A stretch of 43,554 bases of DNA, taken from a virus. This document shows, piece by piece, positions 1-43,554 of the stretch. How positions within the stretch are numbered: the first letter of the stretch is position 1; each line of letters begins with the position of its first letter. The notes under the pieces were generated by a model that was given only the letters and a program-made list of their open reading frames with translations, was not told the origin of the DNA and ran no database searches. The translations under genes and the position numbers were made by a program. Where the stretch lies: the IMG/VR virus record IMGVR_UViG_3300017646_000004; one strand, given 5' to 3'.

Positions 1-180
1 CTCGCGCGTGCCAACCTCGCGGATGCCAACCTCGCGGGTGCCAACCTCGCGGATGCCTACCTCGCGGGCGCCAACCTCGCGCGTGCCAACCTCGCGCGTG
101 CCAACCTCGCGGGTGCCAACCTCGCGGATGCCTACCTCGCGGATGCCAACCTCGCGGATGCCAACCTCGCGGATGCCAAA
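1..180 (+). repeat. 15-bp tandem repeat array (12 units), 3' part of the pentapeptide minisatellite
   Basis: Units ctcgcgNNNgcc(a/t)ac repeat head to tail from base 1. Variation is limited to the third codon (cgt/gat/ggt/ggc) and aac/tac. Confidence 0.95.
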
Positions 181-519
181 AATCTCACCGACGAGCAGCT
201 CCGCCCCATCATCTCCGACTACTGGATGATCCTCTCTCTGGCCCGGCCCGAGGTGCCTGCGCTTATTCGCGCACTTCGCGATGGCCGCGTGGACGGTTCG
301 ACCTACGAGGGCGAGTGCGCTTGCCTAGTCGGCACGCTGGAGAATGCGGGCGGCGATGGCATACCCCATCGGGCCAGCAGCCCGGCCGAACGCTGGTTCG
401 CCGCGATCCGCAAGGGCGATAAGCCCGGCGATGACAGCGCGGGAGGTTTCGCGGCAGGCAAGGCTCTTGAATGGGCCTTGCGCTATTGTGCCCTCACCGG
501 GATTGGGGTGCCGGCATGA
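1..519 (+). CDS. Pentapeptide-repeat protein, 3' part (5' part at 43102..43554)
   Basis: Frame 1 is open from base 1 to TGA 517-519. It encodes 12 x L-A-[RDG]-A-[NY], then [40 protein letters not shown]... The track ORF 8..229 (MPTSR...) is the wrong frame of the same repeat. Confidence 0.8.
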
Positions 520-1110: not shown

Positions 1111-1295
1111 TGACCGTCCAGCGACTTGGCGTCCCGCTTTCCGAGATCATGGAAAGCGAGGAGATCTACCAGATCAGGCGTTACCTCCAGGGCCGGTATT
1201 CGGTCACTCTGCAGGATGGTCGGCGCGGCATCGGTGGAACCGTTGGTGAGGCCCTGCGCATTGCCAAGGCCAGTGCGGGAGTGCTGGCGGCATGA
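1110..1295 (+). CDS. Hypothetical early protein (61 aa)
   Basis: ATG 1110 shares one base with the upstream TGA (TGATG). This is the internal Met of track ORF 1080..1295. Confidence 0.5.
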   Translation: MTVQRLGVPLSEIMESEEIYQIRRYLQGRYSVTLQDGRRGIGGTVGEALRIAKASAGVLAA

Positions 1296-1786
1296 ACGCG
1301 CCTCTCGAATTGGCGAGCATCAAGCGTATTGCGGAAGCCCTCGCCCCGCTCTGCGAAGATGACGAACAGCTGTTTCACGACATGATCGTGGGCGAGACGA
1401 GCATAGATTGGCTCGTTTCCCGCCTTCACGAACAGGTGGCTCGCGATTGCGAGATGCTCGTGGGTATCAAGGAGCGTGCGGCTGCGCTGTCTGAACGCAA
1501 GTCGCGGATCGAGGCCCGCGTCGAGGCATTCAAGCGCCAGATCGGCATGTGCCTGCGTGCTGCCTCTCTTACCAAGCTGGAACTTCCCGAAGTCACCTAT
1601 TCGGTGCGCGACGGAAAGCCCCAGCTTGTGATCGTCAACCCGGATGCGGTGCCCTCTGAATATCAGAGGATCCGAGCGGAGCCTGACAAGGCGGCAATCA
1701 ACGAAGCTTTTGCGGACACTGAGGTCCTGCCGAACTGGCTGGGCGTCGAACCTGCCCGCGACATTGTCTCAGCCCGAACGAAATAG
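1292..1786 (+). CDS. Siphovirus Gp157-like protein (recombination/replication accessory)
   Basis: 164 aa with a central coiled coil (SERKSRIEARVEAFKRQI), then LELPEVTYSVRDGKPQLVIVNPDAVPSEYQRIRAEPDKAAI. This pattern is typical of the Sipho_Gp157 family, recognised by eye. Confidence 0.6.
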   Translation: MNAPLELASIKRIAEALAPLCEDDEQLFHDMIVGETSIDWLVSRLHEQVARDCEMLVGIKERAAALSERKSRIEARVEAFKRQIGMCLRAASLTKLELPEVTYSVRDGKPQLVIVNPDAVPSEYQRIRAEPDKAAINEAFADTEVLPNWLGVEPARDIVSARTK

Positions 1787-1794
1787 GAGGGATT

Positions 1795-2421
1795 ATGGCT
1801 ATCATGGTCAGCGACAGCGGCGGCGGGGGCGACTTCTCCCCGATGCCTCAAGGCAATCACGTCGCAATCTGCAATATGGTCGTGGATCTTGGTCTGCAGC
1901 GGACTGTCTCGCAGATGTATGGCGAGAAGATCAAGCGGCAGGTCTATGTCCGCTGGGAGACTCCCGACGAACGCATTTCCTGGACGGACAAGGAAGGCAA
2001 CGAGCGCGAGGGTCCGCGCGTCATAGGGCAGATCTACACAGCTTCCCTGCATGAAAACGCAAAACTCCGCGGCGATCTCGAAAGCTGGCGCGGCAGGCCG
2101 TTCACACAGGAAGAACTCGCCGGCTTCGACATTTCCAAGCTGCTCGGCGTTCCATGCATGGTGAATGTCACCCATGCAGAGAGGAACGGCAAGACCTACG
2201 CCAATGTCGCGGCAGTCACCCCGTTGCCCAAGGCACTTCGGGAGAATCCGCCCAAGGCCGAAAGCAGCCTGCTGATCTACGACGAGGACAACCCCGGCTC
2301 CTACGACCTGCTTCCTGAATGGCTGCAAAAGAAGATCGATGATCAGGTGCGGCAAAGCTCACCCCCGAGTGGGAATGGCGGCCAACACGACGACGATCTC
2401 AACGACGATATCCCCTTTTGA
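1795..2421 (+). CDS. DUF669-like phage single-stranded-DNA-binding protein with an SSB-type acidic C-terminal tip
   Basis: RBS GGAGGG lies upstream. The 208-aa protein ends ...HDDDLNDDIPF. DDIPF matches the conserved tip of bacterial SSB (E. coli SSB ends DDDIPF). The position after Gp157 is typical. Confidence 0.65.
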   Translation: MAIMVSDSGGGGDFSPMPQGNHVAICNMVVDLGLQRTVSQMYGEKIKRQVYVRWETPDERISWTDKEGNEREGPRVIGQIYTASLHENAKLRGDLESWRGRPFTQEELAGFDISKLLGVPCMVNVTHAERNGKTYANVAAVTPLPKALRENPPKAESSLLIYDEDNPGSYDLLPEWLQKKIDDQVRQSSPPSGNGGQHDDDLNDDIPF

Positions 2422-2466
2422 TCAGCAGGAGACCCCGGGCACCTAACAAGGCCCGGGGAAACACCA

Positions 2467-3973: not shown

Positions 3974-4257
3974 CGGATGCTGAAATAGACGCGCTGGTGG
4001 AGAAATTGGAACGCTGGAGCTCGTTTGGATATGGCGTGGATGCCTCCACTGCCATGCGCGAAGCTGTCGCCCTCATCCACTCCCTGCGCGATCATCTGTG
4101 TTTAGCGGATGAACTGCTCATGGAGGCGAAGGGCGCATTCCCGTTGCTCGGCAATCCGCTGCGGCCTGCCTATCTGAAAATCCGCGCCATCACCGGCGAC
4201 GATTACTACGAGCGCAAATGCCGCGCCCGCTCCCTCATCGAACAGCGGGAGGGTTGA
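3970..4257 (+). CDS. Hypothetical protein
   Basis: Track ORF with an ATGA overlap upstream. Confidence 0.55.
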   Translation: MTDAEIDALVEKLERWSSFGYGVDASTAMREAVALIHSLRDHLCLADELLMEAKGAFPLLGNPLRPAYLKIRAITGDDYYERKCRARSLIEQREG

Positions 4258-4258
4258 G

Positions 4259-4513
4259 ATGGCTAAGCATAAAATTGAGGTCCTGATCTGCGACCGCTGC
4301 GGCCATCGTGAAGAAATCCGCCGCGCCGAGCAACATTGGAAGTGGGGCCTGGCGGCCTATCGGGAGGTCAATGGAGGCAAGTGGGCGGCGTGGTCTCCGG
4401 GAGGTGACGATAATAGCTGCGCCGATATCTGCCCCAGCTGTCTCCATGAACTTCACGTGTGGTGGGAAGCCCCGAAAAACCAAGCGGAGGCCGCAGATGA
4501 CCCCCACCCCTGA
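4259..4513 (+). CDS. Small zinc-ribbon-like protein
   Basis: CDRCGH ... CPSCLH pairs of cysteines. RBS GGGAGGG lies upstream. Confidence 0.55.
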   Translation: MAKHKIEVLICDRCGHREEIRRAEQHWKWGLAAYREVNGGKWAAWSPGGDDNSCADICPSCLHELHVWWEAPKNQAEAADDPHP

Positions 4514-4558
4514 AATGCTGGCGATGGCCGCACTCCATGGTGCCAAGGAAGCGTTGAA

Positions 4559-4741
4559 ATGACGGCTGACCTCCCTCCCTTCGTCCGCCTGTCCCGTGTG
4601 TGCCAAGCCGCGCAGTCATGGGCCAATGCCGTCCAGTCCGACAGGGACCGGGATATCTCGATAGCACGGCGCAATGACATGCTCCTCAAGCATCTGGACG
4701 AGCTGGAGGAGGCTATCAGGGAAGTGAGGGGGGTGTTGTGA
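4559..4741 (+). CDS. Hypothetical protein (60 aa)
   Basis: Track ORF. Its stop overlaps the GTG of the excisionase-like gene. Confidence 0.45.
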   Translation: MTADLPPFVRLSRVCQAAQSWANAVQSDRDRDISIARRNDMLLKHLDELEEAIREVRGVL

Positions 4742-5025
4742 GCGAGCGCGCGCGCGTCTCCTACGTGATGCACAAGACCGGGCTATCCCGGCGCACGGTG
4801 CAATCGATGGCCGCCAGAGGCCTGATACCGGGCGCGGCGAAGCTGGGTTCGACATGGACGTTCGATAAGTTAAAACTCGCCCGCTGGATAAGGAATCGGG
4901 AAAGCGCGTGCCGGACAACCTCTACGAGCGAAACGGCGTTTTCTATGCCCGCATTCAAGTGGCAGGCAGGGACGTTAGAAGGTCCCTTAAAACAGGCTCT
5001 AAGGCGGAGGCAAAGCGCCGCCTGA
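4738..5025 (+). CDS. xis: Excisionase/AlpA-type HTH DNA-binding protein
   Basis: MHKTGLSRRTVQSMAARGLIPGAAKLGSTWTFDKLKLARWI fits the excisionase-family HTH, and the gene sits immediately upstream of int. The C-terminal tail overlaps the int start, so the true 3' end is uncertain. Confidence 0.6.
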   Translation: MSERARVSYVMHKTGLSRRTVQSMAARGLIPGAAKLGSTWTFDKLKLARWIRNRESACRTTSTSETAFSMPAFKWQAGTLEGPLKQALRRRQSAA

Positions 5026-5966
5026 AAGCCATGCTCGCCCAGCTCTCGCCTTATCACGGGACAGCCCGCCGCAGCGTTACCGACGTGCTCGACGCGGCCT
5101 TGCTCGATGCGAAGGGTCATTTGAAGGAAAAGACGCTGGATCGTTACACGCAATCGGCGCTGATCCTGAACCGTCACTTCACCGGATTCTTCGATGCGAT
5201 AGACCGGCGCGCGGTGCTCGACTTCATAGAGGCGCGCAAGGCGGACGGGGTTTCGATCCGCACGATCAAGAACGACCTTTCGGTGCTTTCTGTCGCGGCG
5301 GAATATGCGATTGAGCATGATCTTGCTGGCACAAATCCCGTCACACAAATCGGCAAGCGATCGCTGCGCTACAAGCCATCGGTTTTCGTCCTTCCGCCGG
5401 ACGCCGATATAGAGCTAGTGCTATCGAGCGTGGCCGGACCGCTGGAGCAGCTTTGCCGCCTCCTGAGGCATACCGGGATGCGCCGGGATGAGGCGGTGAA
5501 TCTGCGCTGGCAGGACGTGGATATGAAGCGCGGAGCCGCCACCCTGCCCATAACAAAAGCAGGCACATCAAGAACGGTCTCGTTGAGCGCGAAGGCCCTG
5601 GAAATCCTCAAGGGCCGCCCGCGCCAGATAGCAACCGATCTGATCTTCACCCGCAACGACGGACAGCCCTATACTGGCGTGTCGCAGGGCTGGCGGGAGG
5701 CAGTCTACAGGGCGCTCAAGAAGCGGCCAAAACTGCAACGATTCCGGCTTCACGATTTGCGGCACATCTACGCAATCGAATATCTGCGCGATGGCGGGAA
5801 CTTGTATGTCCTGCAAAAGCAGCTAGGGCACGGCAGCATCCGGCAGACGGAGTGGTATCTGCAATTTCTGACCCCGGATGAGCAGGAAAAAGTCAAATCG
5901 CAGTCGGCACAAAACCCGGCACAACTGCACCGGTTTACAGTTGCAGGCGGTGCAAAAAATGGCTAA
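4908..5966 (+). CDS. int: Tyrosine recombinase (phage integrase)
   Basis: GTG start. Contains RHTGMRRDEA (Arg I), HDLRHIYA (H-x-x-R) and LGHGSIRQTEWY (His/Tyr nucleophile region). Confidence 0.9.
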   Translation: MPDNLYERNGVFYARIQVAGRDVRRSLKTGSKAEAKRRLKAMLAQLSPYHGTARRSVTDVLDAALLDAKGHLKEKTLDRYTQSALILNRHFTGFFDAIDRRAVLDFIEARKADGVSIRTIKNDLSVLSVAAEYAIEHDLAGTNPVTQIGKRSLRYKPSVFVLPPDADIELVLSSVAGPLEQLCRLLRHTGMRRDEAVNLRWQDVDMKRGAATLPITKAGTSRTVSLSAKALEILKGRPRQIATDLIFTRNDGQPYTGVSQGWREAVYRALKKRPKLQRFRLHDLRHIYAIEYLRDGGNLYVLQKQLGHGSIRQTEWYLQFLTPDEQEKVKSQSAQNPAQLHRFTVAGGAKNG

Positions 5967-8955: not shown

Positions 8956-9209
8956 TCCTCCCCCTTCTCGATCACCTTGGCCTTGGCCACCGATCGATCC
9001 TTTAGCGCGATCGCGCCGGCCGTTGCCGTGATGCAGGCCGCGATCCCGGCCGGATAGGCCAGGCAGAAGCTGTCGAAGCTGGCAGTGATCTTCCCGGCCC
9101 ACACCAGCGCAGGGGCCGACACGATATAGACCACCGAGCCGAACGCGCCGATGATGCGCTGGACCTCGTATTCCCCGCCGATTCCCTTGAGGGCGTTGAG
9201 GAGCTTCAT
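8952..9209 (-). CDS. Holin candidate
   Basis: 85 aa with hydrophobic spans (IIGAFGSVVYIVSAPALVWA, AYPAGIAACITATAGAIAL) and a charged C-terminus. ATGA overlap with the endolysin stop. Confidence 0.55.
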   Translation of the reverse strand: MKLLNALKGIGGEYEVQRIIGAFGSVVYIVSAPALVWAGKITASFDSFCLAYPAGIAACITATAGAIALKDRSVAKAKVIEKGEE

Positions 9210-9763
9210 GACGATGTCCTGTAAAGCGCCTGCTCTCGCTGGCGTCGCTTGACGAGGCCGGGCAACGTCTTCCCCGCTGCTTTCACCCACTTGGGGAACT
9301 CGTTCGCCGCGCCAACATAGTCCCCCTCATTGTGCTTGCGCAGGAGGGTGGAAGTCCGAAGCGCCTCAGCCCCTACATTGAAGGCGAAGCTCACCAGCGC
9401 GGAGAACTGGTTGTCGGTCGCATTCGCGCCAACCAACTTCGCCACGGCATCTTCGAAGCGGGCGATGTCGGAGCGGAGCAGTTCATCCGCCTTCGCCTCG
9501 GTAATCACGAGGCCAGGCGATACGTCCGCTCCCGTGTGGCCATAGCCGATGGTCCACGGCGCACCTCCGGTCCCCGGATCGGGATAGGCCTTGAGGCGCA
9601 GGCCCTCGCTTTCCTTGATGATGTCGAGGCCAGCGGCATTGATCGTGCGGCGGGTCGGTTCCGTGATTCCAAGGACCTTCGCGAGCGCCCCCAACGTGAC
9701 GGGGCCTAGCTTCCCATCAGCCGGCACGCCCACATGGCGCTGAATATCGGCAAGCGTGGTCAT
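9206..9763 (-). CDS. Endolysin: peptidoglycan-binding domain plus GH24 lysozyme
   Basis: N-terminal IQRHVGVPADGKLGPVTLGAL (PG_binding_1-like), then ESEGLRLKAYPDPGTGGAPWTIGYGHT (T4/lambda-type lysozyme signature). Confidence 0.85.
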   Translation of the reverse strand: MTTLADIQRHVGVPADGKLGPVTLGALAKVLGITEPTRRTINAAGLDIIKESEGLRLKAYPDPGTGGAPWTIGYGHTGADVSPGLVITEAKADELLRSDIARFEDAVAKLVGANATDNQFSALVSFAFNVGAEALRTSTLLRKHNEGDYVGAANEFPKWVKAAGKTLPGLVKRRQREQALYRTSS

Positions 9764-10155
9764 TTCGCCTTCTCCTGCTTCTCCGCTGAGATGATGAGCT
9801 GCGCGATCTGCTTCGCGTCTCCGAAGCCCTGGACGATCGCCTCGAGCCGCAGCACCTTCGCCTCGCTCTCGGCATGGCGCTCCTGGCACTCGGCAAGGGC
9901 GGTCTCGGTGCTTGTCACCCGTTCGCGCAGGGCCGTCACCTCGATGTCGTGCCGCTCGCGCAGGTCCGCGATTTCCTTCTCCAGCCTGTCCAGAAGCTGC
10001 TGCGTGCTGCGGTCGATCCTGTCCGCCCTCTTGTCCATTCGGCCTCCCAGCCATTCGAGAAGCCAGCGGACGAACCAGATGCCGCCAGTCAGGCTGATGC
10101 CGGCCGTCGCCCCGGCAGTTGCCCACCGAGCGAGGAGTTCGAGCCAGTCGCTCAT
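9760..10155 (-). CDS. Membrane-anchored coiled-coil protein (possible holin or lysis regulator)
   Basis: N-terminal TM (AGATAGISLTGGIWFVRWLLEWL) and a long heptad-like region. ATGA overlaps on both sides. Confidence 0.5.
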   Translation of the reverse strand: MSDWLELLARWATAGATAGISLTGGIWFVRWLLEWLGGRMDKRADRIDRSTQQLLDRLEKEIADLRERHDIEVTALRERVTSTETALAECQERHAESEAKVLRLEAIVQGFGDAKQIAQLIISAEKQEKAK

Positions 10156-11051
10156 GGCAAGTCCAACAGCCGCGCCCTGAATATCTGGCGCGCCTGCTCA
10201 ACCTGGCCAGCATCAAGCCGATCGGGGATCACCACCGTTCGCCATATTTGACATCCGCCATTGACGGTCTCCGAGCCTCCAAGGCGAATCCGGGCGTTGG
10301 CGTAGGTGGAGCTTCCTCCAGACAGGACCGACCAGAAATCAGTGCGCGAAGCGACGACGCTGTCGTTTAGGTAGAGCGCCCCGTTTCCGTCGTCCGCATG
10401 CACGGTTATTGCGGCGAAGTTCCACCCCGGCGCGAGCAAGCTGGCGCTGGTCATCGACGCAGCGCCCTGGGCGCTGTTTCGTTGGCCTGTTGCCTGGAGA
10501 AACCCAGATGTGCTTCGCCGCAGATACAGGCCGGCGTTCGCGCCATTTGCAAACGTGTGTTCGAATATCCGTCTCTCGTTGGTTCCGCCGACCTGCATGT
10601 TGAACGCGCAGAGCAGCGTGAGCCCGCGAATCCCACTGAGCGCTGAACCGATCGCAGTCTGCAAGCGATCATCCGTTGCTGCCCCGCCGCGATAGAAATC
10701 GAATACTTCGATGCCGCCCGGCGTGGTGGCCAGCGCGGGTTCGGTGGCCATCGGAGACAAGTCTAGAGCGGCCCCTGCAAGAGAGTAGGCCTTCTCCACA
10801 GTGGTATCGAGGCGGATCAGGGCGGGATCGGCCCAGAAGATCGGCTCAACCCCCTTGATGGCGGTGATCTCATCCCAATCCGCGATTTGCGGCAGATAGC
10901 TGATGGCCGGGCAGGTCAGCCCGTCATCGATTGCCGCCTGGAGCGCGCCAGTGGGCGTCGGAGAAAATCCCCCGATATCGAGGATGCGCGGAAGATTGCT
11001 GATGCCTCCGGTGGCCGGCAGCGCCTGCAGGACAAGGGCCTGTGTGGTCAT
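10152..11051 (-). CDS. LamG/concanavalin-like lectin-fold protein, putative accessory receptor-binding protein
   Basis: The C-terminal half (WNFAAITVHADDGNGALYLNDSVVASR...IRLGG) looks like a LamG jelly-roll. It follows the tailspike. Confidence 0.5.
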   Translation of the reverse strand: MTTQALVLQALPATGGISNLPRILDIGGFSPTPTGALQAAIDDGLTCPAISYLPQIADWDEITAIKGVEPIFWADPALIRLDTTVEKAYSLAGAALDLSPMATEPALATTPGGIEVFDFYRGGAATDDRLQTAIGSALSGIRGLTLLCAFNMQVGGTNERRIFEHTFANGANAGLYLRRSTSGFLQATGQRNSAQGAASMTSASLLAPGWNFAAITVHADDGNGALYLNDSVVASRTDFWSVLSGGSSTYANARIRLGGSETVNGGCQIWRTVVIPDRLDAGQVEQARQIFRARLLDLP

Positions 11052-37526: not shown

Positions 37527-38408
37527 TTATATCGCCATGTGGGCGGTATGGTTTTCGACAGGAGAAAGAGCCGCCGGGTGTCCGATGGCGGAAAGGATCG
37601 CGCGACCAATCAGCTCGGGGATTTGTGGGATTACGGCGTTTCCGAGGGCCCCAGTGCGGTCCACCCGGTCGGGAATCCCATCATCCATTCGACAAATTCC
37701 GGCTTCGGGCGAATCCCAAGCATCGGTTGCCCAAGGATTGTCAGCGTGAGACATCCAGCGCCAAAGGGCGTCCCCAAGGTGCAGTTGGTGTATCCCCGTG
37801 ATTTCCGGGGAGTAGGCAATAATCCAGACGCGCTCGCGCAGATGCGGGGCGCCAAAGATGGCCGCCGGTATGATTTCCCATTCCGCATCGAGCCTGCGCC
37901 GGGCCAGCGCCCCGAGAACTTCTCCCATCCATCGATCAAGCAGCTCTGGGCTGTTCTCCAAGATGACGAAGCGTGGTCGAAGTTCGCCAATAAGGCGGTC
38001 GATTTCGAAGAAGAGGCCGGAACGTTCACCATGCAGGCCAGCGCGCGCACCCGCTGCGCTGATATCCTGGCACGGAAAACCGCCCGTGATGACATCGATC
38101 GCTCCAAGATCACCTCCGGCAAGCTCCCGCACGTCTCGGTGGCAAGGGACGTCTGGCCAGTGTTTCGCAAGGATACGACGGGGGAACTCTTCGATCTCAC
38201 AGAAGGCGACGGTTTCGAAGCCACCGGTTCTCTCCAGTCCAAGCGAAAAGCCGCCGATGCCGGAGAACAGGTCCAGCACCCTGAGCTTGCGGAAGGAAGC
38301 CGCTGGGCCAAGGGGGTCAGCCCGGCGGCAGGTATCGGACGCTGCATCAGGCACGCACGGGCGAGCCGCAGAAGGGCAATCCTTCGACGATGCAGTGAGC
38401 CCGCTCAT
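37527..38408 (-). CDS. DNA (cytosine-5)-methyltransferase
   Basis: Motif I DLFSGIGG, motif IV GGFPCQDIS, ENS, RER and motif X GNAV. Short target-recognition region. Confidence 0.9.
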   Translation of the reverse strand: MSGLTASSKDCPSAARPCVPDAASDTCRRADPLGPAASFRKLRVLDLFSGIGGFSLGLERTGGFETVAFCEIEEFPRRILAKHWPDVPCHRDVRELAGGDLGAIDVITGGFPCQDISAAGARAGLHGERSGLFFEIDRLIGELRPRFVILENSPELLDRWMGEVLGALARRRLDAEWEIIPAAIFGAPHLRERVWIIAYSPEITGIHQLHLGDALWRWMSHADNPWATDAWDSPEAGICRMDDGIPDRVDRTGALGNAVIPQIPELIGRAILSAIGHPAALSPVENHTAHMAI

Positions 38409-38650
38409 GCTGCGTCCTTGGGGAGGTGGGATTCGAGGGAAGACTTCGCCTGCCACGGCTCGACCGCCTCAAGCGTGTCGATCTGCTCCTCGGTCAGGTC
38501 GGAAATGCTGGGATGTTTCCAGCCGGTTCGTCGCAGAATGTGGATCGCAAGCGAACGAGATGGCGAGCGAACGCCGTTCAAAATCATGCTCGCATAGGAC
38601 TGGCTAATGCCGGTCACATACTGGAGTTCGGAAATGGATGGCTTCGACAT
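38405..38650 (-). CDS. Cro-like HTH regulator, first gene of the leftward early operon
   Basis: ISELQYVTGISQSYASMILNGVRSPS is an HTH. The gene is divergent from the repressor gene and has no SD upstream of its ATG. Confidence 0.6.
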   Translation of the reverse strand: MSKPSISELQYVTGISQSYASMILNGVRSPSRSLAIHILRRTGWKHPSISDLTEEQIDTLEAVEPWQAKSSLESHLPKDAA

Positions 38651-38656
38651 GCCGCA

Positions 38657-38738
38657 TATATCACATATCGTGATGTTCGATGCAACAGCCGAATATCACA
38701 GAATGTGTGGCGAAAGCGGTATCACAGTCTGCGATAAT
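38657..38738. promoter_or_regulatory. Immunity switch: three ATCAC-N5-GYGAT-type operators and divergent promoters
   Basis: ATCACATATCGTGAT 38660..38674, ATCACAGAATGTGTG 38695..38709 and ATCACAGTCTGCGAT 38721..38735. Leftward TTGCAT-17-GATATA (38685..38657). Rightward -10 GATAAT 38733..38738. Confidence 0.5.
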
Positions 38739-38744
38739 GCTGGA

Positions 38745-39086
38745 ATGGGCTATCAGGAGAAAAACGGCGGTCTGAACCATCTTCGTGCCTGGCGCGAATA
38801 CCGCAAGCTCACTCAGCAGGAATTGGCTGAGGCGGCCGATACGACCCAGCATCAGATCGCATATCTTGAGAGCGGAGAAAGGGCATTGTCCGCCAAGTGG
38901 CTCCGCCGACTCGCGCCTGCGCTAAGGATCACGCCGGGATTTCTTTTGGATCACGATCCGAACGATCTCACTGATGACATCATAGACATCTGGGCCACAG
39001 CCGATGATCGCCAGAAGATGCAGATAACAACGATCACCAAGGCCATAGTCCAAGGTGACAAAAAGACTGGAACGAATAGCAGCTAG
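38745..39086 (+). CDS. XRE-family HTH repressor (CI analogue, no peptidase domain)
   Basis: LRAWREYRKLTQQELAEAADTTQHQIAYLESGERALSAKWLRRLAPAL is an XRE HTH. The ATG lies 7 nt after GATAAT and has no SD. Confidence 0.7.
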   Translation: MGYQEKNGGLNHLRAWREYRKLTQQELAEAADTTQHQIAYLESGERALSAKWLRRLAPALRITPGFLLDHDPNDLTDDIIDIWATADDRQKMQITTITKAIVQGDKKTGTNSS

Positions 39087-39106: not shown

Positions 39107-39412
39107 GTGCACGGCGAAAAGCAAATCGCGGGCGCGGGAGTCGTCGCTGTCCTACTTGTGATGACTTTAGTGATTTGGTGGCACTCTAGTCGTGATAGTT
39201 CGCCATACGGCGCGCTTGTCAGACAGGTTGAGCGAGACCACGTCGGAAGTGCTAACGATCAATGGCTTGAGATGAAAAACCTGGCTGGAAAGTGGGAGCG
39301 AGTTGGACTTGTGTTCGGCTACATAGACGATTTCGGGGCATGCACCGACATTGCGACTGGCCTGAAAATGGTAAACCCCGTGCGTGAATATCGCTGCGCA
39401 GGGGCGAATTAA
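39107..39412 (+). CDS. Membrane-anchored small protein, paralog A
   Basis: GTG start after a G-rich RBS. N-terminal TM GVVAVLLVMTLVIWW. The C-terminal domain is about half identical to the next gene's. Confidence 0.6.
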   Translation: MHGEKQIAGAGVVAVLLVMTLVIWWHSSRDSSPYGALVRQVERDHVGSANDQWLEMKNLAGKWERVGLVFGYIDDFGACTDIATGLKMVNPVREYRCAGAN

Positions 39413-39439: not shown

Positions 39440-39727
39440 ATGAAATTCGCTTTCTCAATTGCACTAGCACTCCTCTCGGCAGGTTGCGAAAATCGGCCCT
39501 ATAATGACAATATCGCCGGCTACGATGCCCTAGTTGAACATATTAAGGCGCATCGCGTTGGGCGTAACGCCGATCAATGGATTGAGATGAAGAACGTCTT
39601 CGGAGAGTGGGAGCGAACGGGGCTGATATTTGCCTACTCGGATGATTACGAGGAATGCCTAAAGGCCATAGCCGGCCTTAAAAAGGCAAATGCGGATCGC
39701 GAATATCGATGCACATCCGCCAACTAA
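39440..39727 (+). CDS. Lipoprotein, paralog B
   Basis: Signal peptide with lipobox LLSAGC. Shares ADQWxEMKNxxGxWERxGLxFxYxDD...GLKxxN..REYRCxxAN with paralog A. Confidence 0.65.
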   Translation: MKFAFSIALALLSAGCENRPYNDNIAGYDALVEHIKAHRVGRNADQWIEMKNVFGEWERTGLIFAYSDDYEECLKAIAGLKKANADREYRCTSAN

Positions 39728-39739
39728 TAGGGGCAAGCT

Positions 39740-40078
39740 ATGAGAATACGTTCGATGTCTGCCGCTGCACTAGCGCTGTGCCTTATGGCTACTCCCGCGC
39801 TCGCTGATGTCTGGGTCAACCCCCATGTCCGCAAGGATGGGACCTATGTGGAGGGGCATTGGCGGACCGAGCCCAATGCGACCCGACTCGACAACTATTC
39901 GACGCAATACAACGTCAATCCGTATAACGGAAAGCGTGGGACTGCCGATCCGGTGCCGATCACTCCCAAAAAACCAAACACCGGAATAGATATCACGCCT
40001 TACCTGCCTCCCAAGCCTATCGTGCCTGTTCCCGTGCCGCATTCAAGTTACCCCAAGAGTCGGTTGGGCTCACACTGA
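39740..40078 (+). CDS. Secreted protein (signal peptide, Pro-rich tail)
   Basis: Signal peptide ending ALA-DV. Contains VNPHVRKDGTYVEGHWRTEPNATRLDNYSTQYNVNPYNGKRGT. Confidence 0.6.
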   Translation: MRIRSMSAAALALCLMATPALADVWVNPHVRKDGTYVEGHWRTEPNATRLDNYSTQYNVNPYNGKRGTADPVPITPKKPNTGIDITPYLPPKPIVPVPVPHSSYPKSRLGSH

Positions 40079-40108: not shown

Positions 40109-40468
40109 ATGGGGAATAATGCAGCTCCAGCCCTCCCCATGAAGGAGTTTTCCCGCGAGGTGTTGAAAAGCGGGGATGGCGGTGGCAAATTTGATGGCAT
40201 GAATAGTCGTGTAAACCAGAAGCTTAGCGACCTCCCCACCGCCGGCCAGATTCGAAACAACATCTGGGGTGCCGCTGCCGCGGTGCTCGGTATAATCTTG
40301 GCGGCGCTCGCGTTTGGCGGAGACCGCTTTGACGGCGGATTAGGCGCCTCATCTCTGCTCCATGAGCAAGCTGAGCAACAGGCTCAGAAAGACGCTGATC
40401 AGGACGGGCGCCTAGCGCTGATCGATCAGAAGCTTGATATCCTGATCAAGCAGACCTCAGGCAAGTAG
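40109..40468 (+). CDS. Single-pass membrane protein with a C-terminal coiled coil
   Basis: TM IWGAAAAVLGIILAALAF. The start is uncertain (alternative Mets downstream). Confidence 0.5.
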   Translation: MGNNAAPALPMKEFSREVLKSGDGGGKFDGMNSRVNQKLSDLPTAGQIRNNIWGAAAAVLGIILAALAFGGDRFDGGLGASSLLHEQAEQQAQKDADQDGRLALIDQKLDILIKQTSGK

Positions 40469-40573: not shown

Positions 40574-41407
40574 CTAGGCGGCCGACCTCGGCAAGGCTCT
40601 CTTGGCTTCACGCTCCGCTAATGCCGCCAGGGCGTTGTTGGCAATTTGCGCGGGCAGTTTCCGCTTGCTCACCTGACTTGCCAGGTAAGAAGGCATTTTA
40701 GTGGGGATATAAATCTCTCTTATCCACCGTCTGAATGTCGGTAGCGAGTCCTCCGGATAGCAGCTTGCCGGTTGGGGGTTTGAAAACGACTGCTGGAAAT
40801 AGTCCGGATAATAGTGATCGAAATATCGACGCGGGCCGAATTGATCCTCTAGGCCAGCATCCTTCCAGTGACGTCCCCAATGGAGGCCAACGCTGATATC
40901 AAGGATCATTTGCGTGCCCGGGGCCACTCCTCGCGAAATGAGGGTCGCGAAGATGTCAGCGATTTCCCGGAACACGCACCAATATCCTTCCGGGACATTA
41001 TCGTAGACAAGTGACACCCTATCCTCGAACTGCCGCCAGATCCGATCCGTGGGATCACGGCCCAGCATCCAGTCATAGACCCATTCGGTGACCTTGACTG
41101 CGAATTCTGGGGAAAGCCATTGAGCCAGGTGAATAGCAACCTGAGGGTGGACCCATGTTCCTCGCTGCTCATTTGCACCAGTTAATATGGATTGCGCCAA
41201 GAGGTCCCTGTGAATCTGCAGGGACCCTTCCAGCGCCGCGAGAAAGGCCTCTGTTGTGTCAAGGCGTCGGTACGAAGACCACTCCCTCCCTGCCGCCCGA
41301 CACATCGAGGTAGCATTGATGTAGCCGTCTTCCGCCCGCTGATGGATCAGACTACCCTGATGGGTGTGAGGGACCAAAGCGAGTTGCTTCTGGGTATCGT
41401 CAACCAC
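40574..41407 (-). CDS. KilA-N domain protein with an uncharacterised C-terminal domain
   Basis: GTG start with RBS GGAG. DGYINATSMCRAAGREWSSYRRLDTTEAFLAAL...GTWVHPQVAIHLAQWLSPEFAVKV is a KilA-N signature. Confidence 0.75.
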   Translation of the reverse strand: MVDDTQKQLALVPHTHQGSLIHQRAEDGYINATSMCRAAGREWSSYRRLDTTEAFLAALEGSLQIHRDLLAQSILTGANEQRGTWVHPQVAIHLAQWLSPEFAVKVTEWVYDWMLGRDPTDRIWRQFEDRVSLVYDNVPEGYWCVFREIADIFATLISRGVAPGTQMILDISVGLHWGRHWKDAGLEDQFGPRRYFDHYYPDYFQQSFSNPQPASCYPEDSLPTFRRWIREIYIPTKMPSYLASQVSKRKLPAQIANNALAALAEREAKRALPRSAA

Positions 41408-41516
41408 GGTATATTACTCCGTATAGGAGGCCACACGAGGTATTGACGCCGCCGCCCGTTTACACCATACGGGCCATGAGAATGTGGCTGTCAGGACCTG
41501 CGTGTCCTCAGTTACT

Positions 41517-41553
41517 AAAAGCCCCGCCGGTCCTCGTGACCTGCGGGGCTTTT
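41517..41553. terminator. Bidirectional rho-independent terminator
   Basis: AAAAGCCCCGC...GCGGGGCTTTT: a GC-rich stem flanked by an A tract and a T tract. Confidence 0.7.
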
Positions 41554-41681
41554 GATTATACATGCCGAATCGCACCCAAGTAACCCCGCAGGTAGACTCT
41601 TTGGGGAAAAACTCGGCGGCCAGCCCCGGTCACGATGGTTAATGTTCCATGTTGGGACAGATTAGCGCAGCCCAGACGATC

Positions 41682-41702
41682 ACCCGCTCCGGCGGGGTTT
41701 TT
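41682..41702 (+). terminator. Plus-strand terminator-like hairpin overlapping the stop of the 72-aa gene
   Basis: CCCGC-TCCG-GCGGG followed by GTTTTT. Confidence 0.4.
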
Positions 41703-41920
41703 CATGCCCACCGATGCGAGTAGGCGTCGAAGTCCAACCGCAGCCTCTTCCGCACCAGCAGCTCGTCGCTCACCTTGATAAGATTGACGCCGGGCGCGCG
41801 CGGCAGCTTTCGCGCCTGATCCAGTGCATCACCTAGATTGTGCGCCCAAAGACGGTGCGTGATGGGAACATCGTTCTCGACGTCGCCAATCACTTTGAAC
41901 TGCCTTGCCGTATACACCAT
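41702..41920 (-). CDS. Hypothetical protein (72 aa)
   Basis: RBS AAGGAG 9 nt upstream of the ATG. Confidence 0.45.
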   Translation of the reverse strand: MVYTARQFKVIGDVENDVPITHRLWAHNLGDALDQARKLPRAPGVNLIKVSDELLVRKRLRLDFDAYSHRWA

Positions 41921-42029
41921 GATGCGATGCTCCTTAACCCATTGCGTCGCCCCACCCTAGAGTCTGCATATTCTGTACACCCTTCGCAAGCCTCACCCAG
42001 CCCAGGAAAGGAGGGGGTAGCCCGGCTTC

Positions 42030-42425
42030 CTACTTCAGGCGCTTGCGGAAGTGATCGGTGAGGACGCCGATAACGAGACCACCGGTGAGGAGCGTGCGCA
42101 GGTCGCGGAGCTGAAGCTCGGAGAGCCAGTGCCAGGTGGTCGGTGTCAGCAAATGAAACAGCCAGAACAGCCCAATTAGCAACAAACTGCCCGACATCAC
42201 CCAAAGCGCAATCAGCGCCAAGCATTCGAAATGCCGCTTGAAACGCTGATCGCGATGGTGTTCCGCCCGAGCCGCCTCGCGCGCCAGCTCATCTCTGGAT
42301 TTCCCGCTGGCGAATTGCTCGGATTCTTGAGCTGCCTTGGAATCCCCACTCGCCGCAGCCTCCGCTTCGCTCGGGCTGGCGACAACGGGATTATCCTCCT
42401 CCTCAGGCAGTGCGTTGCTCCGCAA
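42030..42425 (-). CDS. Two-TM membrane protein with an acidic N-terminal region (toxin candidate)
   Basis: TMs CLALIALWVMSGSLLLIGLFWLF and LLTGGLVIGVL. No in-frame ATG lies before the first TM, so a TTG or other non-ATG start is implied. A GAGGAGGAGGA tract sits at the upstream stop. Confidence 0.5.
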   Translation of the reverse strand: MRSNALPEEEDNPVVASPSEAEAAASGDSKAAQESEQFASGKSRDELAREAARAEHHRDQRFKRHFECLALIALWVMSGSLLLIGLFWLFHLLTPTTWHWLSELQLRDLRTLLTGGLVIGVLTDHFRKRLK

Positions 42426-42864
42426 GCCGCTTGTAGTGATCTTCGATCAGGTCGATCGGGATGATCTTTCCGAAAGATCCAGGCTCATAGGTGAGCTCCC
42501 AAGGCGTCCCGCTTGCGTGCGTGATACGAGAAAGTTCCATCCCCGTGAACTTCCGATAGGCCTGATAGACCTGATCGATCACCGCCTTTTCCTGATCGTC
42601 CAACTTGCCGCGATCGAGAAAGTTGCCAACCCGCTTGGAAACCGGCGCTCCCCGATACTGCCGGACATGGCTATAGAGAGCCGGGATCACAGGGCCATAC
42701 TGCCAAGCCTCAACCCGGTCGTTGAACAGCGGGCGGCTATGCAGACCCAGCATCCAGCCATGGGCAATATAGGTCAGCTTCAACAGCTGCATCGGGGTCA
42801 ACGGGTCGCCCGCTTCCTCTGCCAGCTCCAGGAAGCGGTTGGCGACGGAAATGCTAGTAGCCAT
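42403..42864 (-). CDS. Panacea/DUF4065 (GepA/SocA-like) antitoxin-domain protein
   Basis: RBS GGAG. ISVANRFLELAEEAGDPLTPMQLLKLTYIAHGWMLGLHSRPLFNDRVEAWQYGPVIPALY matches the DUF4065 core (LQKLLYYAQGW...FEAWQYGPV). Confidence 0.8.
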   Translation of the reverse strand: MATSISVANRFLELAEEAGDPLTPMQLLKLTYIAHGWMLGLHSRPLFNDRVEAWQYGPVIPALYSHVRQYRGAPVSKRVGNFLDRGKLDDQEKAVIDQVYQAYRKFTGMELSRITHASGTPWELTYEPGSFGKIIPIDLIEDHYKRLAEQRTA

Positions 42865-42996
42865 CTGTCCACTCCAACTGCCTGCCCGTGTCGAGGGCGG
42901 ACCTGCAATATAGTGGACCTGCGCCGAATTGGCAATTCGCCCCAGCCACGCAGCAACCGACGCTTCGCCCGACAGGAAAGGAGGGGTCGAGAGAAT

Positions 42997-43047
42997 AATC
43001 ACAATACGTGATTTTATGGATTGACGCGATCATCACAATATGTGATT
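42997..43047. promoter_or_regulatory. Second operator locus: two perfect ATCAC-N5-GTGAT palindromes with divergent promoters
   Basis: ATCACAATACGTGAT 42998..43012 and ATCACAATATGTGAT 43032..43046. Minus-strand TTGTGA-16-TAAAAT (43038..43011). Plus-strand TTGACG at 43021..43026. Confidence 0.5.
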
Positions 43048-43101
43048 GCCATCCCCATCACCCGGCAGTCCCCAGCGACCCGGACAGGATGGAGATGAGA
43101 T

Positions 43102-43554
43102 ATGGCCGAGACCGGCACCACGATTGAGCAGTTCCCCGTCCGCGACCGCTGGACCGGTGAAGTCAAGTTCACCGCTGAGATCGCCGTAACGCCCGACATG
43201 ACGCCAGCGATCAAGCTGGGGCTGGCAGTGAAGTGGGGGGTCAAGGCGCGTGCCAACCTCGCGGATGCCAACCTCGCGGATGCCAACCTCGCGGGTGCCA
43301 ACCTCGCGGATGCCAACCTCGCGGGTGCCAACCTCGCGGATGCCTACCTCGCGGGCGCCAACCTCGCGGATGCCAACCTCGCGGATGCCAACCTCGCGCG
43401 TGCCAACCTCGCGGATGCCTACCTCGCGGGCGCCAACCTCGCGGATGCCAACCTCGCGGATGCCAACCTCGCGGATGCCTACCTCGCGGGCGCCAACCTC
43501 GCGGATGCCAACCTCGCGGATGCCAACCTCGCGCGTGCCAACCTCGCGGATGCC
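43102..43554 (+). CDS. Pentapeptide-repeat protein, 5' part (continues at 1..519)
   Basis: [57 protein letters not shown], then A-N-L-A-[DGR] units in frame 1 to the window end. The track shows only a wrong-strand ORF here. Confidence 0.8.
43243..43554 (+). repeat. 15-bp tandem repeat array (about 21 units), 5' part of the pentapeptide minisatellite
   Basis: The same ctcgcgNNNgcc(a/t)ac unit as at 1..180, running to the last base of the window. Confidence 0.95.

Follow-up and report, generated by a model that had tools for sequence, protein, structure and literature searches.

The IMG/VR virus record IMGVR_UViG_3300017646_000004, a stretch of 43,554 nucleotides (nt) called here the window, is a complete and circularly permuted temperate phage genome. 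On its minus strand, at 42030-42864, it carries two overlapping genes, panA and panT. The first encodes a protein of the Panacea (DUF4065) family and the second a small predicted membrane protein. We consider it likely that they form a type II toxin-antitoxin (TA) module of the PanAT class, in which a membrane toxin would be neutralized by direct binding of its antitoxin. Established in the window are the family membership of both proteins, the conserved order and adjacency of their genes, the translation of the N-terminal region of PanT and its predicted hairpin fold.

The putative antitoxin gene panA (42403-42864, minus strand) starts with the ATG at 42864, ends with the TGA at 42405-42403 and encodes a stand-alone Panacea-domain protein of 153 amino acids (aa). 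Read from the sequence, a ribosome-binding site GGAG is found at 42872-42875 (minus strand), 7 nt before the ATG. The original prediction had recognized a Panacea core in this protein, and the hidden Markov model (HMM) search that it called for was positive: residues 27-122 match Pfam PF13274 (SocA_Panacea) over profile positions 1-112 of 113, with 73.2 bits for a cutoff of 25.7 (E 4.3e-20). No further domain was found beside it. PanA also matches phrog_1281 (E 1e-40), and a sequence search of the PDB gave no match. At E <= 1e-10 PanA has 890 homologues, nearly all of 148-160 aa. Among those with a named source, the closest belong to sphingomonads and further Alphaproteobacteria; homologues in temperate phages are represented by 147 phage records and 24 IMG/VR loci. 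The G-P-V signature of the family, critical for neutralization (Kurata et al. 2022, PMC8832971), is kept as WQYGPV at residues 54-59. Seven residues, W54, Y56, G57, P58, V59, H116 and W122, are invariant in 32 aligned homologues, H116 lying within a TH..GTPW motif. Since homologues of 150-155 aa align with PanA from residue 1, the ATG at 42864 is to be preferred over a GTG at 43002. The 199-aa protein extended to this GTG was ruled out, homologues having about 150 aa and the extension crossing an operator.

The putative toxin gene panT (42030-42425, minus strand; 131 aa) begins with a TTG at 42425 and ends with a TAG at 42032-42030. The 23-nt overlap with the 3′ end of panA, as predicted, occupies 42403-42425 (minus strand); the TTG falls in the PanA codons for ..YKRLA.., within the conserved C-terminal stretch ..DHYKRLA.., and is the sole canonical start upstream of the acidic region of PanT. 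It had been noticed that no ATG precedes the first helix and this is correct: in the panT frame, ATG, GTG or TTG does not recur until codon 69, which lies in the first hydrophobic helix. A TTG is present at the same place (-23) in L001, the locus of the closest homologue, and in two other loci (L077 and L002), while three other relatives use a GTG located 26 nt inside PanA in the same relative frame. Across related loci, the toxin starts at -26 to -35, again in the same relative frame, or with a 4-nt overlap (NTGA).

A GAGGAGGAGGA tract at the gene junction had also been reported. It is present (minus strand, 42404-42394) and begins one base into the PanA stop codon; as a conserved ribosome-binding signal it does not stand, L001 carrying TGGAGACGAT instead. 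As a ribosome-binding site of panT it was ruled out on the same ground and because no in-frame start follows. Since it encodes Glu-Glu-Glu-Asp in the panT frame, we regard it as coding sequence and not as a dedicated ribosome-binding site. Between the window and L001, residues 9-62 differ at 15, 18 and 31 first, second and third codon positions, respectively, and 14 of the 36 changed codons are synonymous, while the motif ESEQFASGK is identical. This excess of third-position changes, together with the in-frame motif, argues that the acidic N-terminal region is translated in the panT frame. A 57-aa open reading frame (ORF) in the +1 frame, starting 17 nt past the PanA stop, was dismissed: it is rich in arginine, its start is not conserved and we regard it as a shadow ORF.

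PanT displays an acidic N-terminal region and two hydrophobic helices, as proposed, the second one being short. Residues 1-43 (42297-42425, minus strand) are acidic and mostly unstructured, and contain ESEQFASGK. They are followed by a charged helix that precedes the membrane segment (residues 44-66; 42228-42296, minus strand), with the pattern E.H.R...F(R/K).HFE and an invariant R58. Predicted transmembrane helix 1 (residues 67-93; 42147-42227, minus strand) ends in W.(W/F)H, H91 being nearly invariant. The last part (residues 94-130; 42036-42146, minus strand) consists of a short loop with P95, W98, W100 and L101 (P..W.WL), of which P95 and L101 are nearly invariant, and of helix 2 with its basic HFRKRL end, written HF(K/R)KRL for the tail of the family. 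A Kyte-Doolittle scan detects a single strong segment at residues 65-94. In the AlphaFold2 model (62 sequences; mean predicted local distance difference test score 88), a coil (1-17) and two short helices (18-25 and 29-39) precede two longer helices, 44-93 and 103-130, with a short loop between them. Given the basic residues at the two cytoplasmic ends, the natural topology would be an N-in/C-in helical hairpin.

Searches with the single PanT sequence wrongly suggested an orphan: a word-indexed search retrieved PanT itself and one homologue (56% identity, in L001), and tblastn against 50,697 phage records gave no match. A large family emerged when PanA neighborhoods were extracted and searched iteratively with HMMs. 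In L001, the PanT homologue stands behind a 68%-identical PanA in the same arrangement and with the same 23-nt overlap. To the window and L001 we added 97 loci of PanA relatives, of which genomes supplied 73 and IMG/VR 24, for a total of 99. In most of them the next same-strand gene after PanA encodes a protein of 105-170 aa whose N-terminal half is charged and which has one or two hydrophobic segments, and a 4-nt overlap with PanA is frequent. A PanT HMM, built from the window protein in five iterative rounds and searched against the 4,838 ORFs of at least 50 aa on both strands of the 99 loci, yielded 59 matches in 58 loci, with 48 loci at E <= 1e-10. All matches are on the PanA strand and nearly all begin within about 120 nt of the PanA end, a positional specificity that serves as a control against compositional drift. 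Against 1.84 billion representatives, the PanT profile matched clusters of similar length, 1,134 of them at E <= 1e-3 and 330 at E <= 1e-10; at 50% identity, the relatives of PanT thus make up about 1,100 clusters. The gene-pair observation is well beyond chance, as judged by the HMM E-values and by how the pair is conserved in other genomes.

Two of these loci deserve mention on their own. In L075 (IMGVR_UViG_3300033067_000664, 4001-4649), PanA is intact and 62% identical to that of the window, and the downstream PanT ORF, of 76 aa, matches the C-terminal half only, helix 1 being missing; the toxin may have decayed here while the antitoxin was kept. In L001, a gene for a 407-aa protein with a RelA_SpoT domain (1199-2422, minus strand) lies directly after PanT and is convergent with it.

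Kurata et al. 2022 (PMC8832971) gave DUF4065 the name 'Panacea' and validated nine PanA-PanT pairs. Among the members of toxin cluster T12 in their Dataset S1, found in antitoxin-then-toxin order, are the Bartonella apis protein WP_077993242.1 (marked 'TA', that is, validated), YP_003344835.1 of Aggregatibacter phage S1249 and WP_022822065.1 of Hymenobacter norwichensis DSM 15439, with a 0-nt spacing. The S1249 protein is 38% identical to the window PanT over 87 aa (BLASTP, E 3e-26), the alignment covering the pre-membrane helix and both following helices, and it matches the PanT family HMM at 3e-28. The same Hymenobacter strain, with its 0-nt spacing, is one of our loci (L037) and matches this HMM at 4e-24, and a Pseudomonas aeruginosa phage homologue matches it at 1e-14. 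A word-indexed search with a 30-sequence PanT alignment returned five proteins, the Bartonella sequence not being among them. Judged by these alignments, the window PanT is a T12-type PanT. The Bartonella toxin is written PanT-D11 by Ernits et al. 2023 (PMC10440598), so we take node D11 as the equivalent of T12. The proposal of a membrane toxin partnered with PanA is supported by this homology and by the recurrence of the arrangement in dozens of bacterial and phage loci; gene order and small overlaps in the window also agree with Dataset S1. By sequence, the TA family of panAT is one whose description and validation date from 2022-2023, and the pair itself is not of a new kind.

Toxins with membrane segments from Shiga toxin-producing Escherichia coli (STEC) O31 (T3), B. 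apis (T12) and Helicobacter (T4) block transcription, translation and replication together, and those of STEC O31 and B. apis provoke strong depolarization, seen with DiSC3(5), and SYTOX Green uptake (PMC8832971). The B. apis toxin is rescued by its cognate PanA, and neutralization by the tested PanAs is independent of ClpXP and Lon (PMC8832971). For the Bartonella pair, the model of Ernits et al. brings Panacea into contact with the toxin's unstructured N-terminal region and with the short helix before the transmembrane segment, and the PanA substitutions Y56A and H120E abolish neutralization (PMC10440598). Like the window pair, the PanAT of B. apis/B. choladocola has a stand-alone Panacea antitoxin upstream and a small toxin directly downstream, and its PanA (WP_077993240.1) shares Y56 and the His of the TH..PW motif. 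The two differ in their location, a temperate phage for the window and the chromosome for Bartonella ('NotPhage' in Dataset S1), and in their junction, a 23-nt overlap with a TTG start compared with a 4-nt spacer.

The T3 pairs of E. coli STEC O31/Stx/lambdoid phages (e.g. Escherichia phage PhiR47_1) are phage-borne as well, have a PanA 42% identical to that of the window, the same gene order and a toxin with a charged N-terminus and a transmembrane C-terminus. This toxin, a demonstrated membrane disruptor, is longer (182 aa compared with 131 aa). The PanT of PhiR47_1 gave no HMM match to the window family (E <= 10) and an hhalign probability of 1.2%; its pair has a spacing of 22 nt, the value listed in Dataset S1 for STEC O31. 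SocA-SocB of Caulobacter (type VI, cluster T10) shares with the window an upstream Panacea antitoxin and an alphaproteobacterial setting, yet SocB is a soluble replication inhibitor degraded by ClpXP with SocA as adaptor, whereas the window toxin is a predicted membrane protein of another cluster. The -23 overlap had pointed to T10, which was ruled out, SocB not being a membrane protein and the window toxin matching T12. Finally, HokB (type I), used as comparator for PanT membrane toxins in PMC8832971, has the same expected physiological effect as PanT; HokB-type toxins are non-homologous to PanT and are controlled by antisense RNA instead of a protein antitoxin.

As a separate observation, the -23 nt overlap of the window and of L001 (775-797) is also given in Dataset S1 of Kurata et al. 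for many SocB-type (T10) loci of Alphaproteobacteria, which carry an unrelated toxin. The -23 nt TTG junction may be preserved when toxins are swapped, and could represent a fixed splice point for Panacea antitoxins.

Upstream of panA, the motif TTGTGA-16-TAAAAT proposed as the promoter of the pair is present (43011-43038, minus strand; 9 of 12 consensus matches). It sits between two 15-nt operator-like palindromes and overlaps both: ATCACAATACGTGAT at 42998-43012 and ATCACAATATGTGAT at 43032-43046, 34 nt apart. A better-scoring site, TTGCCA-17-TATATT, fits the consensus at 10 of 12 positions and is found at 42907-42935 (minus strand), 43 nt ahead of the ATG of panA. Both sites are consensus matches only. 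The -35 of the latter lies within the palindrome CGAATTGCCAATTCG (inverted repeat I4), and is overlapped by a 13+13-nt inverted repeat at 42919-42945, CTGCGCCGAATTG C CAATTCGCCCCAG, a possible regulatory site in its own right. Two copies of the palindrome ATCACAATAYGTGAT lie between panA and the pentapeptide-repeat gene described below, and three diverged ones in the intergenic region of the cro-like and cI-like genes (38660-38674, about 38694-38708 and 38721-38735). Allowing up to 3 mismatches, its scan gave 8 matches where 0.9 were expected, and 0 shuffles reached 8. The palindromes near panA are thereby more likely, from their sequence and distribution, to be a second operator region of the phage than a private TA promoter. 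This region faces the plus-strand early operon (pentapeptide gene, gam, ninB and int) as well as panA, and a sigma-70 scan of 41400-43300 gave no plus-strand promoter-like site for the pentapeptide-repeat gene. The layout of five related palindromes in two intergenic regions resembles that of lambdoid O_R and O_L.

Downstream of panT, the predicted 72-aa gene does follow after a 109-nt gap. This gene, orf72 (41702-41920, minus strand), has an AAGGAG 9 nt before its ATG. The gap contains no terminator-like hairpin, its fold being weaker than those of shuffled sequences (z = +3.0), and orf72 is probably co-transcribed with panAT. The idea of a conserved three-gene block is not borne out: no orf72 homologue was found in the 98 other PanA loci or in the 50,697 phage records, and it has no Pfam, PHROG or PADLOC match. 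As far as these searches reach, orf72 is an orphan that stands outside the conserved module. Beyond a further 294-nt gap lies a gene of the BstA abortive-infection family with an N-terminal KilA-N domain (40574-41407, minus strand), a neighbor and not a part of the pair. Its product matches Pfam KilA-N (2.6e-22), phrog_6287 'BstA abortive infection system' (1.3e-63) and PADLOC BstA (2.3e-54), and no homologue of it was found in the 98 other PanA loci. In PADLOC-DB v2, PanA, PanT and orf72 have no match at E <= 0.1, only the neighboring BstA being recognized. BstA is reportedly a prophage abortive-infection protein that typically lies beside the repressor locus.

The ends of the window share 27 identical bases and both fall within one pentapeptide-repeat gene (43102-43554 and 1-519, plus strand), which starts with an ATG at 43102 and continues in frame 0 from base 1. 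From these shared ends we conclude that the contig is a circular assembly opened within the pentapeptide repeat. The gene product consists of A(N/D)L.(D/G/R) repeats in 15-nt coding units and has relatives in P22-like Salmonella, Edwardsiella and Acinetobacter phages. The plus strand further encodes an integrase (4908-5966), a Gam-like protein, NinB and an HNH endonuclease. On the minus strand are found DNA-ejection proteins, the major head protein, portal, large terminase, a primase/helicase and, at the end of the late operon, an endolysin (9206-10216; phrog_7 at 1.7e-62). A cI-like XRE repressor gene (about 38745-39086) is divergent from a cro-like gene (38405-38650). The pair panAT is located in the accessory region between this cI-like region and the second operator region, two genes away from the BstA homologue. 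The host is probably an alphaproteobacterium. The pair was said to lie in a lower-GC island: the 39.0-43.1 kb region is indeed at 56.4% GC compared with 60.8% for the rest, but its two genes are not themselves markedly GC-poor, panT being at 60.6% and panA at 58.0% for a whole-window value of 60.4%. Transfer RNA and Rfam scans of 39-43.5 kb found nothing.

Other genes of this region may be noted. Adjoining the cro-like gene, a 309-aa ORF (37527-38456, minus strand) shows in translation the motif GGFPCQDIS, like that of cytosine-C5 DNA methyltransferases. Downstream of the cI-like gene are two adjacent small paralogous genes (39107-39412 and 39440-39727, plus strand), one with an N-terminal membrane helix and the other with a lipoprotein signal (LSAGC), sharing the C-terminal motif DQW.EMKN..G.WER.GL.F.Y.DD...C...GLK..N..REYRC. 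Two small secreted or membrane ORFs come next, at 39740-40078 and 40109-40468.

To account for the pair, we propose the following model. PanT would insert into the inner membrane as an N-in/C-in helical hairpin and, when free, would dissipate the membrane potential and permeabilize the membrane, so that all macromolecular synthesis stops. PanA would bind PanT directly in the cytoplasm, contacting its acidic N-terminus and the charged helix that comes ahead of membrane helix 1, and would hold it before, or without, productive insertion. The weak TTG located 23 nt inside panA would be the start used for panT, whose translation is probably coupled to that of PanA, keeping toxin output below that of the antitoxin. 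The module would be an accessory cargo of the phage immunity region, with prophage retention or the killing of infected cells as likely benefit; its biological role is speculative. Toxicity, membrane target, binding interface and translational coupling are all transferred to the window pair from published homologues. Direct binding is suggested by the mutants of the modelled interface in the Bartonella pair and by protease independence. Since the window pair possesses Y56, H116, an acidic N-terminus and a charged helix with an invariant Arg, we propose direct cytoplasmic sequestration here as well.

Several points weigh against this model. Family membership is no guarantee of toxicity, 8 tested PanTs being non-toxic in E. 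coli (PMC8832971), and the B. apis PanT is linked to that of the window via two other T12 members. Helix 2 of PanT has no more than about 15 hydrophobic residues (109-124), few for a segment that is to span the membrane. Concerning expression, no recognizable Shine-Dalgarno sequence precedes the panT TTG, PanA is devoid of an autoregulatory DNA-binding domain, and panAT has two candidate promoter sites, of which TTGCCA-17-TATATT is the higher-scoring, nearer to panA and outside the operator palindromes.

The lack of an ATG and of a clear Shine-Dalgarno at the TTG, in high-GC DNA where long spurious ORFs are common, may raise the question whether panT is a real gene, or is translated only from an internal start, leaving the acidic region untranslated. 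We give this hardly any credit: homologues form a large family, the acidic region is conserved in frame with an excess of third-position changes and an identical ESEQFASGK, and the next in-frame start falls within helix 1. It is also very improbable that PanT is a holin-like lysis timer and PanA its antiholin, both taking part in the lysis program. A small two-helix membrane protein with a charged C-terminus, carried by a phage and capable by homology of permeabilization, would fit a holin, but the endolysin gene closes the late operon at a distance of about 32 kb, the pair resides in the immunity/accessory region and is common in non-phage chromosomal loci, and neither protein has a PHROG lysis match. 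More attention is due to a type VI mechanism, in which PanA would act, as SocA does, as a proteolytic adaptor delivering the membrane protein to a protease and not as a stoichiometric binder. SocA of Caulobacter is a Panacea protein working in this manner, the host here is probably an alphaproteobacterium, and Kurata et al. 2022 (PMC8832971) consider that one mode need not exclude the other. We nevertheless find it quite improbable for the window pair, since tested PanAs neutralize without ClpXP or Lon, substitutions at the Bartonella PanA interface abolish neutralization of a homologous toxin, and the window PanT belongs to T12 and not to the SocB cluster T10.

A further proposal bears on biological role and does not conflict with the TA mechanism: panAT would serve mainly for abortive infection or superinfection exclusion by the prophage, alongside BstA. 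PanA would be the sensor, and an invading phage, or the loss of PanA synthesis, would free PanT and the lysogen would die. This remains a tentative possibility, less probable than not in our judgment. It is favored by the position of the pair, two genes from the BstA homologue in the accessory region between the cI-like operon and the second operator region, by the 'Abi alpha-like' gene near the homologous pair of phage S1249, by the frequency of PanA homologues in temperate phages and by the sensor function that Ernits et al. 2023 (PMC10440598) hypothesize for Panacea. However, neither protein matches any PADLOC model, a literature search found no published phage-defence phenotype for T12-type PanAT, adjacency to BstA is seen in this phage alone among the 99 loci, and many PanA-PanT family members occur in chromosomal contexts. 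A more specific version, which we think unlikely, is a repressor-linked prophage defence unit: panA-panT-orf72, possibly with bstA, would be expressed from the promoter in the second operator region at a level set by the lysogenic repressor, and PanA as sensor would free the toxin on infection by another phage.

The value of the type II TA assignment is mainly annotational, in that a described TA family gains an alphaproteobacterial example carried by a phage. The label of T12/D11-type PanT membrane toxin can be given to the 131-aa protein and to its approximately 1,100 relative clusters. Moreover, with panAT beside BstA and repressor-type operators, this phage offers a convenient natural system for the study of PanAT triggers and of phage defence. 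If the repressor-linked defence unit proved true, it would provide the first biological role for T12-type PanAT.

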